A stretch of DNA of 64,000 nucleotides from Escherichia phage ECP2301: sequence record OR880646.1. One strand, written 5' to 3'. Shown piece by piece: positions 11,102 through 58,355 of the stretch; within the stretch, counting starts at the first letter, position 1, and the number at the start of each line of letters is the position of its first letter. The notes beneath the pieces are model-generated. The model did no database searches. It worked only from the letters and a program-made list of their open reading frames with translations, and was not told where the DNA came from. Position numbers and translations under genes: made by a program.

Positions 11102-11704
11102 TTATAGATTAAATCCTTCAAAATCAAGAGTATAGATAGTGTATGTTGAATACTTTTTATACTCATATCTATCCGCAATTCTAAATACACTTCCAGCTGG
11201 TATCATTACTTCTTGTTCATCTGAAACTAATTCCATATTACGATAACGATGGCTATCCGGAAATTTAAAACTCGGGCTATATTCTTTACAACGTAGAGCT
11301 TTTATAGCATACTCCTGGAAATTAAACACCATAGGAGCTTTGAATTCAAAAATAACTTGTGTGTTGTATTCTAATCCAGAAGCAAAATGTAGAGCTATAT
11401 TTTTATCATATGAAGCTGATACTACTTTATCAAATGTAATAATATCAATTCCTTGATTTAACACCTGCTTAGTCTCAACTGGAACACCTCTCCAAAGAGG
11501 TTTATCGTTTGGAACCAAACGAGATTTGATTATTTCATTTAACCAAGAATGATCGTCTGGCTTATTAGTAATACAATGAATTAAAAGTTCAATTTCGGAT
11601 AAATTAAATCCTTCAGAAAGTAATTCTTCACGAATAGAAGCACGCACAGATGCATCCATTGATTTGATTTTAAAATCTTTTAATTGCATTGCTGAATATT
11701 TCAT
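11102..11704 (-). CDS. modA: ADP-ribosyltransferase, 200 aa (ModA-like)
   Basis: Paralog of adjacent ORF; Ser-rich and E(Q)EVMIP motifs typical of ARTs; 200 aa as T4 ModA. Confidence 0.6.
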   Translation of the reverse strand: MKYSAMQLKDFKIKSMDASVRASIREELLSEGFNLSEIELLIHCITNKPDDHSWLNEIIKSRLVPNDKPLWRGVPVETKQVLNQGIDIITFDKVVSASYDKNIALHFASGLEYNTQVIFEFKAPMVFNFQEYAIKALRCKEYSPSFKFPDSHRYRNMELVSDEQEVMIPAGSVFRIADRYEYKKYSTYTIYTLDFEGFNL

Positions 11705-12336
11705 TCAACTACCTCAATATCATACACTTTAAATGTTCCAAATGAATCGTGTAATTTTTCTTTTGAAATAGAAGTTATTTTATACTTTCCAATTGGAATC
11801 ATCCATTCTTGTTCACGTACAATCATCATTAAGTTATCAGTACGTTCTGAATCTAATCCATCAGTATCTTCATATGTATACTTAAACTCAGTATTAGGAG
11901 AAGAAAGTATAATATCGCTGATATGGTCAGAATAATTAAAAGCTTTATCAGTTTTTAAGCGAAATATTATTTCAGTGGAATATTCAACATAAGAAAAACC
12001 ACATGCTGTGTGCAAACTAGTAGTAAATGAATCTACTCTGTTCGTTGAAAACACTTCTCCGACTTGTAAATCTTTAATGAGTTCTTTTGTCGATTTTGAT
12101 ATACCACGATATAGCTGATAAGGTGATTTAGTTAAATGCTTTTTAACGATTTTATTCAACTGCTGATGAAGAGCTTCATTCTTTTTGGCTTCCATACATT
12201 GCCAAAGAATTGACTGTTCAAAGTCAGTAAATTTTTCACAGACCTTTTTATACATATCATATTGAAAATCAACACTTTCAGCTTTTATAGATAACTGTTC
12301 AACATCTGCAAGATTAATAATCATGATAGCCTCCAT
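11701..12336 (-). CDS. modB: ADP-ribosyltransferase, 211 aa (ModB-like)
   Basis: Paralog of 11102..11704 (EQEWMIPIGKYKI vs EQEVMIPAGSVFRI). Confidence 0.55.
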   Translation of the reverse strand: MEAIMIINLADVEQLSIKAESVDFQYDMYKKVCEKFTDFEQSILWQCMEAKKNEALHQQLNKIVKKHLTKSPYQLYRGISKSTKELIKDLQVGEVFSTNRVDSFTTSLHTACGFSYVEYSTEIIFRLKTDKAFNYSDHISDIILSSPNTEFKYTYEDTDGLDSERTDNLMMIVREQEWMIPIGKYKITSISKEKLHDSFGTFKVYDIEVVE

Positions 12337-17171: not shown

Positions 17172-17798
17172 TTAACCTCTATTCATAAAAGCATTAAAAA
17201 TTTGGTCATCAATAGAAACATCTACTTTAGACTGTTTTTCTGATGGTAATTCATATCCACATATTACAATTTTGTGATCAATATCAAAATACACAGAAGC
17301 AATATGATTAATGATGTTTTCAGTAAAGTCTAAATCAACATCAATATCTTTTTGACCACAGCCCAAAGGATAAATAATGCGAGTAATTCGATTATCTTTA
17401 ACAAAGATTCCACCGACATACTCTGTGCTGCGTTTAAAGTCTACACGCCGACGAAATGAAAAATATTCAGGCTCTTTATGAGCTCGGCTCATAGGACACA
17501 ACGAGTAACTAGAATAAGAGATGTCAAATCCTACGCCTTCAATATGAGCCAAAGTATCATGATTAAACCAGTTATAATCGTACGCCAAATCCATTAGATT
17601 ATAATATGTAAAAGGCACCGGATTAACGTCATTAGTCACAAGCATGTAATTAGCAACTGCTATAATTTCATTGTTTTTAACGAATACAAACCGTGATTGA
17701 TGCGAATGACCTGGACCTGCGTTTTCACGATTAATGATATAACACTGGGCACCTTTATATTTGTATGTATCTTTGCACTTGTGCATTTGATAGAGCAT
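17172..17798 (-). CDS. hypothetical protein, 208 aa
   Basis: ORF, ATG start. Confidence 0.5.
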   Translation of the reverse strand: MLYQMHKCKDTYKYKGAQCYIINRENAGPGHSHQSRFVFVKNNEIIAVANYMLVTNDVNPVPFTYYNLMDLAYDYNWFNHDTLAHIEGVGFDISYSSYSLCPMSRAHKEPEYFSFRRRVDFKRSTEYVGGIFVKDNRITRIIYPLGCGQKDIDVDLDFTENIINHIASVYFDIDHKIVICGYELPSEKQSKVDVSIDDQIFNAFMNRG

Positions 17799-56260: not shown

Positions 56261-56446
56261 TTAAAGCGTATTCACATAAGCTATTAATTCGTTTTCTTTC
56301 TTATCAAACCGATCAGCAAATTCTTCCTGTTGTTCGGGAGATAGCGGGCCGTATTCATCATAAAAGGTGTTTGCTTCTGTATGCTCATCTAGAAGTTCAT
56401 GGATAAGCTCAAACAATTTATCTTTTTGTTCTTTACTCAGACTCAT
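56261..56446 (-). CDS. hypothetical acidic protein, 61 aa
   Basis: ORF, ATG start. Confidence 0.4.
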   Translation of the reverse strand: MSLSKEQKDKLFELIHELLDEHTEANTFYDEYGPLSPEQQEEFADRFDKKENELIAYVNTL

Positions 56447-56612
56447 ATATTAATTTCCAGGAGTTTTAAAATAATTCGCTTTTGCTTAAATATTTCCATG
56501 GTTAAATGACCAGTATCTTTTTGACCGATTCCAATGGCAAAACCTTTATTGACAGCGAATTCAATTAAATTATCAAGCTCACGTAACACTTCATATTGTA
56601 ACTCAAAACTAT

Positions 56613-56825
56613 TCATTTTGGTTTACCTTCTTTAACGAAATCAGGATAAGGATAAAATCCTGAATAAAATCCTTCACCTTTATGATTGATGCATCCTTTA
56701 TTAGAACAATAGCACCAATAATCGAAATCACAAGCCATTTCATCATTACATAAAGCAAAAACAACCGGCCATTCACACTTTTCGCAGTGGGCATTTTTAA
56801 GAATACTAGTTTGGCTCATAACCAT
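56613..56825 (-). CDS. Cys-rich small protein, 70 aa
   Basis: Start moved to ATG; multiple Cys pairs suggest metal binding. Confidence 0.4.
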   Translation of the reverse strand: MVMSQTSILKNAHCEKCEWPVVFALCNDEMACDFDYWCYCSNKGCINHKGEGFYSGFYPYPDFVKEGKPK

Positions 56826-57028
56826 GTAACCTTTAAGCAATATTCTTCTACGTGCTGTTTACGACCTTTCTTATCTATAAAGGTATATTCAACGAATGTT
56901 CCAATATAGTCTTTATCTACATCATGCGGACTATTAATTGGACATTTAGTACGGCAAATGCGTTCCCATTGACGAATAATTTCCACTTTGTTTTTAGGAT
57001 CAAACGGATGCGGGTAATGTACTTTCAT
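56816..57028 (-). CDS. hypothetical protein, 70 aa
   Basis: ORF, ATG start. Confidence 0.4.
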   Translation of the reverse strand: MKVHYPHPFDPKNKVEIIRQWERICRTKCPINSPHDVDKDYIGTFVEYTFIDKKGRKQHVEEYCLKVTWL

Positions 57029-57479
57029 AATCCACCACTATTAAATCAATATCAGGAGTAAACATGTCGATTAATTTAGAAACCTTATCCCAATCGCCGC
57101 CAGCAATACCGCAACCTATGCGTGGAATGTAAATTACTGGTTTAAACAAAAGGGTTTCTGCCTGTAGATTTAATTCTATCATGCAGTTTACTAAAGCACC
57201 ATAATCAAGATTAGGACCCGGTTCATATTGCGTATACAGGTTATAGCATATACCAAATCCTGTAGGATTATGTTTAAAAACAATAGACATATCGCCTAAT
57301 TTATCACGAGAACCGTACTCGGTAGTGGTTTTATCTATTTCCAAAATTTTAGGATAGGCTCTTGCTAATTGACCTGCTACGCCAGAGCCCATTGTGTGGA
57401 AGCAATTACACCCGTGCGCAATAATATTACCTTGAAGAAATAGGGCGACAATATCGCCCTTGATATATTTTACAATCAT
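57000..57479 (-). CDS. macro-domain protein (ADP-ribose binding/hydrolase fold), 159 aa
   Basis: IAHGCNCFHTMGSGVAGQLARAYP and later GCGIAGGDW resemble macro-domain signature loops. Confidence 0.55.
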   Translation of the reverse strand: MIVKYIKGDIVALFLQGNIIAHGCNCFHTMGSGVAGQLARAYPKILEIDKTTTEYGSRDKLGDMSIVFKHNPTGFGICYNLYTQYEPGPNLDYGALVNCMIELNLQAETLLFKPVIYIPRIGCGIAGGDWDKVSKLIDMFTPDIDLIVVDYESTLPASV

Positions 57480-57817
57480 CTAGTACTCAATCCTCGATTA
57501 TAAGAATCTACTAAACGGTCAACCATTGAATGACAAGCGGCTTTATCTTTCTCCTCCGCAACTGAACATTCTAAGGTATTCCACTTTTTAGCATATCGTT
57601 TTAACAATGTATCATTTTTGTATCTGCTTGATTTATCTCTTTCTCCGTCTTTATATGCATATATTAATTTCTGCGCAAATTCAGCTTGGCATGCTTTATT
57701 TTTCCCACAATAATCCGCGGCAGTACGGTTTACATACTCTCTAATTTCAGTATATGATGTATCTGCTAACGCAGAAAATGAAATTAATCCTATACATAAA
57801 ACCAAAATTTTAGTCAT
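57476..57817 (-). CDS. secreted hypothetical protein, 113 aa
   Basis: N-terminal signal peptide MTKILVLCIGLISFSALA. Confidence 0.45.
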   Translation of the reverse strand: MTKILVLCIGLISFSALADTSYTEIREYVNRTAADYCGKNKACQAEFAQKLIYAYKDGERDKSSRYKNDTLLKRYAKKWNTLECSVAEEKDKAACHSMVDRLVDSYNRGLSTR

Positions 57818-58355
57818 TTACTATTTCCAAAAGTTTATTATTTTTAAGGTAATTAGCCTTTTCTAGGACTTCAGAAGCATATTTAGAACCTGCTTTAACA
57901 TTCCATCCCGAATTATAAGAGGATATTGCTTTTCTTATATCGCCCTTATGTATATTTAACCAATAAGAAAGTTCAATGTACGCCCAGGAAGCTGAATTGG
58001 ACCGTTTATTCAACATTCTTTTTATTTCAGCATCGGTCATATTATAACCAAGTTCCTTAACTCTTGCTCGCATGGTCGGCAAATAATTTTGGAACATTCC
58101 ATAGGCATGATGCTTTGGTTTAGATTTTAAATTAACTCCGGCAGAGCTTTCTTGCCATAAAATAGCAGCCATTATATGGCCCAATCCGCTCTTGTGGATA
58201 TTTTTGTGTGTTTTATATTTTCCATCCTTAGAAAATTGTTCCCCGAATTGATATGCGTAACGCATGTTATCGAGTTGGACATTACTGAAAGTATGCTCGG
58301 AGCTATGTGCCATCATTGAAATGGCCAATAGACCAGCGAGTAGTGCTTTTCTCAT
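57810..58355 (-). CDS. secreted lytic-transglycosylase-like protein (SLT-type), 181 aa
   Basis: Signal peptide; ILWQESSAG ... AYGMFQ resembles the SLT catalytic Glu and GLMQ motifs. Confidence 0.5.
   Translation of the reverse strand: MRKALLAGLLAISMMAHSSEHTFSNVQLDNMRYAYQFGEQFSKDGKYKTHKNIHKSGLGHIMAAILWQESSAGVNLKSKPKHHAYGMFQNYLPTMRARVKELGYNMTDAEIKRMLNKRSNSASWAYIELSYWLNIHKGDIRKAISSYNSGWNVKAGSKYASEVLEKANYLKNNKLLEIVND

Follow-up and report, generated by a model that had tools for sequence, protein, structure and literature searches.

A divergent allele of the macrodomain gene tk.4 (adfM) in a Tequatrovirus

The window, by which we mean the whole 64,000-nucleotide stretch of Escherichia phage ECP2301 (OR880646.1) that was analysed, is from a Tequatrovirus. 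Over the 3.9 kb that surround the open reading frame (ORF) of interest it shares 98.6% identity with Shigella phage ESh16, and at least 80% of this segment is covered in 469 phage records. Genes on the minus strand run in the order regB, vs.1, vs, the ORF, tk.3, three small ORFs, tk and rI.1, which matches the order in T4 (regB-vs.1-vs-tk.4-tk.3...tk) and makes the ORF the positional ortholog of tk.4. A preliminary description of this DNA had reported a 159-aa ORF here, and we find it on the minus strand with an ATG start (Table 1); its product is 58% identical to T4 Tk.4 over 155 aa (E=1e-70). With the same place and full-length similarity, the ORF is an ortholog of T4 tk.4 (adfM). The flanking proteins are 99% (Tk), 93% (Tk.3), 97% (Vs), 99.4% (Vs.1) and 99.3% (RegB) identical to their T4 counterparts.

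Table 1 Features of the tk.4 locus and of related loci in the window
Feature	Position	Strand	Remarks
tk.4 / adfM ortholog	57000..57479	minus	ATG start, 159 aa, stand-alone macro-domain protein, 17.5 kDa, pI 5.0
vs (valyl-tRNA synthetase modifier), upstream of tk.4	57476..57817	minus	PHROG 1256, E=5e-40; 97% to T4 Vs
tk.3 (DUF7202), downstream of tk.4	56816..57028	minus	Pfam DUF7202, E=1.2e-37; 93% to T4 Tk.3
First active-site loop, codons 22-35, HGCNCFHTMGSGVA	57375..57416	minus	Family-invariant H22, G23, N25, C26, G33, A35
Gln84 codon	57228..57230	minus	Invariant; at the catalytic-Lys position of TARG1 (K84) and DarG (K80); within NLYTQY
Phosphate-binding loop, codons 119-130, PRIGCGIAGGDW	57090..57125	minus	G122, G124 invariant; A126 at TARG1 Asp125
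Patch strongly divergent from T4	57000..57330	minus	C-terminal two thirds of tk.4; flanks 95-100% identical
T4 gp61.2 homolog (AdfA, anti-DarTG1 factor family)	17175-17798	minus	96.6% to T4; PHROG 3781
ModA/ModB ORFs	11102..11704 and 11701..12336	minus	PHROG 832 'RNA polymerase ADP-ribosylase'; 97.5%/95.2% to T4 ModA/ModB

The TGA stop of vs and the ATG of tk.4 overlap (ATGA), an arrangement that suggests co-transcription and translational coupling of the two genes, and the last 29 nt of tk.4 are overlapped by tk.3; both overlaps fit a single polycistronic mRNA. Upstream of regB, at 58880-58852, lies the most promoter-like site on the minus strand, a consensus match only, and judging from the sequence regB, vs.1, vs and tk.4 appear to share a transcript. 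Within codons 7-13 of tk.4, at 57442-57460 (minus sense) and ~16 nt 3' of the vs stop, the GC-rich sequence AGGGCGATATTGTCGCCCT forms a perfect 8-bp hairpin, which is identical in T4 and was flagged as terminator-like in our scan. In its 81-nt context this hairpin showed no significant extra stability compared with shuffled sequence (z=-1.37), and it could be either an attenuator of read-through from vs into tk.4 or mere coding sequence.

The surrounding genes also hold some features of their own. Between tk and tk.3, at 56261-56840 (minus), the three small ORFs of 61, 57 and 75 aa make this segment unlike that of T4; they correspond to PHROGs 653, 3452 and 2306, to which PHROG assigns no function, and only the first (61 aa) resembles T4 Tk.2, at 54% identity, while the 75-aa ORF is Cys-rich with C-x2-C motifs. 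Over the part of the tk-tk.3 segment that was compared with T4 (56700-56830), nucleotide identity is 33-43%. The Vs.1 homolog (57810-58355, minus), which T4 RefSeq calls a hypothetical protein only, carries an N-terminal signal-peptide-like segment and a weak match to SLT lytic transglycosylases (23.4 bits against a threshold of 21.3).

The ORF product matches the Pfam Macro profile (PF01661) with E=5.8e-8 and 33.1 bits (gathering cut-off 22) over profile positions 2-117 of 118, and PHROG 335 with E=1.6e-71. Its translation bears out both motifs on which the macro-domain call of the preliminary description had been based, HGCNCFHTMGSGVA at residues 22-35 and PRIGCGIAGGDW at residues 119-130, Gly-rich loops of the type expected to contact a diphosphate. 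Structure prediction, which had been proposed there as a check, was carried out with AlphaFold2: from the ORF sequence alone the model was unusable (pLDDT 33.9), and prediction was repeated with a 75-member family alignment that reaches down to 38% identity, yielding a model with a pLDDT of 93.7 and a pTM of 0.89. The predicted structure is a three-layer alpha/beta/alpha macro fold, and a non-macro fold is excluded by this model together with the Foldseek matches. The macro-domain call is thus right, with a Pfam match far beyond chance and a predicted fold that agrees. By structure and sequence the nearest proteins are TARG1, DarG, SCO6735/Bt_1257 and Poa1p, placing the ORF product in the ALC1/TARG1-like class, nearer to these proteins than to MacroD, PARG or viral macrodomains.

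A tblastn search with the ORF protein found homologs of this macrodomain family in 2777 phage records, many of them from Pseudomonas, Vibrio, Acinetobacter and Aeromonas phages. In T4 RefSeq, tk.4 is labelled 'phosphatase; contains A1pp phosphatase motif'. It is a well-known macro gene of T4-like phages, and the observation made from the sequence is real but mostly explained already, by the macro/A1pp annotation in the T4 genome record and by the anti-DarTG2 role reported for the T4 ortholog in 2025. What goes beyond annotation is that the allele in the window is divergent and that the family has an invariant Gln at the Lys site without the SCO6735 loop; remaining interest attaches to this Gln-type active site, to the allele dimorphism and to the biochemistry of the family.

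Across the 75-sequence alignment, H22, G23, N25, C26, G33, A35, D49, N80, Y82, Q84, P119, G122, G124 and W130 are invariant. All three profile alignments (hhalign, hmmsearch and hmmalign) place Q84 opposite K84 of TARG1 and the Gln of Bt_1257, and profile alignment places A126 opposite TARG1 Asp125, so that the Lys84/Asp125 dyad of human TARG1 (OARD1/C6orf130) is Gln84/Ala126 in the window protein. A six-sequence MAFFT alignment, in which the strand before Q84 was shifted in register for Bt_1257, TARG1 and gp104 of phage PhiKZ, was dropped because the three profile-based alignments agree among themselves. TARG1 otherwise shares the macro fold and the PRIGCG motif with the window protein (profile E=2.4e-17) and has no gap in the post-catalytic loop; in the window protein this loop, directly after Gln84, reads YEPGPN, contains no Lys, equals TARG1 in length and leaves a six-residue gap against Bt_1257.

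The residue set points to SCO6735 of Streptomyces coelicolor and Bacteroides Bt_1257, which are Gln-type members of the ALC1/TARG1-like class. SCO6735 is 54% identical to Bt_1257, lacks the catalytic residues of TARG1 and DarG, and has Gln85 at the Lys position; its Q85A mutant loses all activity and its N27S mutant nearly all (PMC9411070). The phage family has the same Gln/Asn/His/GxG set: Q84, N25, H22, G122 and G124 align with Bt_1257, H22 and N25 falling on residues of the same numbers, which have been taken as equivalents of His24 and Asn27 of SCO6735 (PMC9411070). Since SCO6735 was not directly alignable here, the mapping of Q84 to Gln85 is transitive, through TARG1, Bt_1257 and the published structure-based alignment, from which the equivalence to Gln85, Asn27, His24 and Gly126/128 is taken (PMC9411070). 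When the C-terminal 99 residues were aligned with the PDB, DarG and SCO6735 were either absent from the best five alignments or aligned over PRIGCG only. On DNA, SCO6735 removes thymidine-linked ADP-ribose more rapidly than either DarG or TARG1 does; it also confers protection against DarT, and DNA binding has been credited to its mobile loop (PMC9411070). In SCO6735 and Bt_1257 this loop is 5-6 residues longer and carries DNA-binding lysines (Lys89, Lys93/94), whereas the phage family is without it. Moreover, SCO6735 and Bt_1257 are strongly electropositive and bacterial chromosomal, in contrast to the acidic (pI 5.0), phage-encoded window protein.

The window protein also differs from DarG. 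DarG of T. aquaticus and M. tuberculosis has a catalytic Lys (Lys80 in T. aquaticus) where the window protein has Gln84, and the 159-aa window protein has no C-terminal DarT-binding domain as in the two-domain DarG. PADLOC gave DarG as the sole match, with 27.7 bits and E=4.5e-7 over positions 3-144 of 329, and the best NCBIfam match, antitoxin_DarG, reaches 27.8 bits, below a cut-off of 250 that is set for the full two-domain protein. In the window, tk.4 is flanked by vs and tk.3, and neither darT nor any other ADP-ribosyltransferase (ART) gene lies beside it. Lacking the Lys, a second domain and a darT next to its gene, and scoring below the NCBIfam threshold, the window protein is not a member of DarG. 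In Pelagimonas phthalicica, the only bacterium in which a homolog was examined, the gene (40% identity) is stand-alone and chromosomal with no neighbouring darT; this would fit an origin of the phage proteins in stand-alone macrodomains of bacteria and not in a DarG antitoxin, although a single case proves nothing.

A phage protein that does resemble DarG is gp104 of PhiKZ, a phage DarG copy that was independently named 'AdfM' and was shown in vitro to free an oligonucleotide of the ADP-ribose installed by DarT2 (2026 Cell Reports, PMC13309987). It is Lys-type with a DarG-like FPTK motif; its Lys is off by 1-2 residues in the profile alignments and is read as the DarG Lys by family membership. 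N25 of the window protein aligns with N23 of gp104 (hmmalign), for which an N23A construct is listed, mutation of the conserved catalytic-site Asn lowering activity (PMC13309987). Scores against the PADLOC DarG model are 27.7 bits for the window protein, 36 for T4 Tk.4 and 132.9 for gp104, and this difference, together with the difference in the catalytic residue, assigns the two 'AdfM' proteins to separate subgroups within one fold class. The name therefore spans two enzyme types, Lys/DarG-like in PhiKZ gp104 and Gln/SCO6735-like in T4 Tk.4, and transferring annotations from one to the other would obscure a mechanistic difference.

T4 Tk.4, or AdfM (anti-DarT factor Macrodomain), is likewise encoded between tk.3 and vs, is 155 aa long against 159 here, and shares the invariant H22, N25, Q84, G122 and G124. 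Its role was preceded by the finding that T4 without adfA and adfN is still DarTG2-resistant (PMC11825919), which predicted a further factor. In November 2025, a HIDEN-SEQ preprint reported a T4 transposon library grown on a DarTG2 host, in which only tk.4 reached significance; a clean tk.4 deletion sensitised T4 to DarTG2, the gene was renamed adfM, and the authors proposed that it 'seems likely' that AdfM removes ADP-ribose from DNA (bioRxiv 10.1101/2025.11.20.689424). The suggestion of the preliminary description that a phage macrodomain could act on marks made by host defence systems is hence backed by published genetics of the T4 ortholog (bioRxiv 10.1101/2025.11.20.689424). These genetics on DarTG2 resistance concern the T4 allele and not the window allele, and in the literature searched we found no work on the biochemistry of Tk.4-family proteins.

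We consider it probable, at about 0.7, that tk.4 in the window is made before replication and that its product hydrolyses DarT2-attached thymidine-ADP-ribose on single-stranded phage DNA through an SCO6735-like mechanism with a Gln-positioned water. In this model, replicating phage DNA is attacked by the host toxin DarT2, which ADP-ribosylates thymidine at N3 within single-stranded TNTC motifs. The macro protein, made before phage DNA replication begins, would hold the ADP-ribose in the cleft between its HGCNC...GSG and GCGIAGG loops and hydrolyse the base-ribose bond, restoring replicable DNA. Gln84, kept in place by Asn25, would position the distal ribose while a backbone-held water acts, a chemistry like that of SCO6735 and not Lys-based as in DarG and TARG1. 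The model is favoured by the position and similarity shared with T4 tk.4, the DarTG2 genetics of T4, the invariant active-site residues, the precedent of SCO6735, and DarG being the sole PADLOC and best NCBIfam match. Thymidine-ADP-ribose in DNA as the substrate, like the catalytic details, is what we infer from these comparisons, and the window allele, at 58% identity, presumably acts as the T4 allele does. Because the T4 allele differs at 42% of residues, including the phosphate-binding loop, equal specificity of the window allele is an assumption. Two features of the protein count against the model: an acidic pI (5.0) is seldom seen in enzymes binding single-stranded DNA, and both the DarG Lys and the lysine loop of SCO6735 are absent.

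The differences from T4 Tk.4 lie mostly in the C-terminal two thirds of the protein, and the window allele has four extra C-terminal residues. Sliding nucleotide identity to T4 is 98-100% in vs, 75-87% in the first 150 nt of tk.4 and 95-97% in tk.3; over the C-terminal two thirds of tk.4, in 60-column steps, it is mostly 40-62%, with one step at 73%. Megablast matches of T4-type alleles to the window are confined, within tk.4, to its first 150 nt, consistent with this drop. At the phosphate-binding loop, where T4 has PRIGAGIGKGNW, the window allele carries the family consensus GCGIAGG in place of the GAGIGKG of T4; the T4 allele departs from this consensus, which makes the experimentally tested allele the atypical one. 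Both classes of allele occur commonly, the window-type allele being found in 312 phage records at a protein identity of at least 90% and the T4-type allele in 224 records at the same level, with 159 more at 80-90%. The window allele is thus the family-consensus form and, at 90% or above, the one with more records.

Such divergence could mean that the window allele has another or broader nucleic-acid specificity, directed at other DarT2 variants or at N3-uracil ADP-ribose in RNA, or that it neutralises the toxin partly by binding, readings that we regard as improbable. The divergence is sharply local, with Tk.4 at 58% between flanking proteins at 93-99%, and the phosphate-binding loop is not alike in the two alleles. 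Additionally, uracil-ADP-ribose in RNA is also cleaved by SCO6735, TARG1 and DarG (PMC13036486), and SCO6735 retains its in vitro inhibition of DarT even when catalytically dead (PMC9411070). Against an altered specificity, both alleles keep all family-invariant residues, and mosaic allele replacement is frequent in accessory genes of T4-like phages and need not imply a new specificity.

It is similarly improbable that the protein mainly processes small ADP-ribose derivatives, with the DarTG2 phenotype as a side activity. Candidate substrates would be ADP-ribose-1''-phosphate (the legacy 'A1pp phosphatase' assignment), O-acetyl-ADP-ribose, and ADP-ribose-based immune signals or toxins (Thoeris etc.). 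Comparative genomics has argued, as a general prediction, that small ADP-ribose derivatives, and not macromolecular adducts, are what most phage macrodomains act on (PMC9503650). Also in favour is the similarity to yeast Poa1p, an ADP-ribose-1''-phosphate phosphatase, which is the best Foldseek match, matches strongly in its N-terminal sequence, the His included, and is the source of the legacy 'phosphatase' and 'Poa1p-like' annotations. Identity to Poa1p is, however, just 22-25%, and the C-terminal half matches weakly. In the phmmer alignment, from which this residue mapping was read, H22 falls on His23 and T29 on Ser30 of Poa1p, both mutated in Poa1p structures; H22 is also present in TARG1 and Bt_1257, so that the His does not discriminate between these families.

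The least tenable alternative, which we consider very unlikely, is that the macrodomain erases or reads the marks that Alt, ModA and ModB leave on RNA polymerase, S1, EF-Tu and other host proteins, rendering them reversible or timed. The preliminary description had raised this idea, placing tk.4 in the same early region as two ARTs resembling ModA and ModB. Its coordinates for these genes proved exact; Pfam gave no match to either ORF, and they are identified by PHROG 832 and by their 95-97% identity to T4. The 'same early region' was loosely put, since both loci are present in the window but lie ~45 kb apart and not in one operon. In support of an action on the phage's own marks, ModA and ModB are both encoded in the window, all three genes belong in T4 to the block expressed before DNA replication, and SCO6735 has some activity on Glu/Asp protein ADP-ribosylation (PMC9411070). 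With the genes 45 kb apart, tk.4 shares no common operon with those for ModA and ModB. The target of ModA is Arg265 in the alpha subunit of RNA polymerase; the T4 ARTs, which are of the cholera-toxin family, are taken to be arginine-specific in general. Arg linkages are reversed by DraG/ARH-type enzymes, and MacroD-/TARG1-like macrodomains cleave Asp/Glu esters and O-acetyl-ADP-ribose (PMC8120803). Phage distribution differs as well, with the macrodomain family in 2777 phage records as against 1010 with a ModB homolog, the latter nearly all from enterobacterial hosts. Furthermore, insertions in T4 tk.4 were depleted solely when DarTG2 was present (bioRxiv 10.1101/2025.11.20.689424). Linkage chemistry, distance, phage distribution and the DarTG2-only phenotype in the screen thus all speak against the macrodomain acting on ModA/ModB marks.

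With the gp61.2 homolog and tk.4, the window has two separate anti-DarT loci besides ModA/ModB. Taking AdfM and AdfA, both in the window, with AdfN, elsewhere in T4, T-even phages appear to invest heavily against DNA ADP-ribosylation.

A more far-reaching idea, unlikely in our view though somewhat less so than the substrate alternatives above, is that an arms race split tk.4 into two sharply different classes within near-identical Tequatrovirus genomes. Each class would have its own target, either different DarT2 variants or N3-uracil ADP-ribose in RNA as against thymidine ADP-ribose in DNA, and the phage family would be a third type of base-ADP-ribose hydrolase, with a Gln and without a DNA-clamping loop. 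Both classes occur among the phages AugustSocin (MZ501052.1), which has a window-type tk.4 with 93.8% nucleotide identity, and KarlGJung (MZ501089.1), which has a T4-type tk.4. These two, which we take to be E. coli K-12 phages of the BASEL collection, form a ready pair for comparing allele-specific protection against DarTG2.
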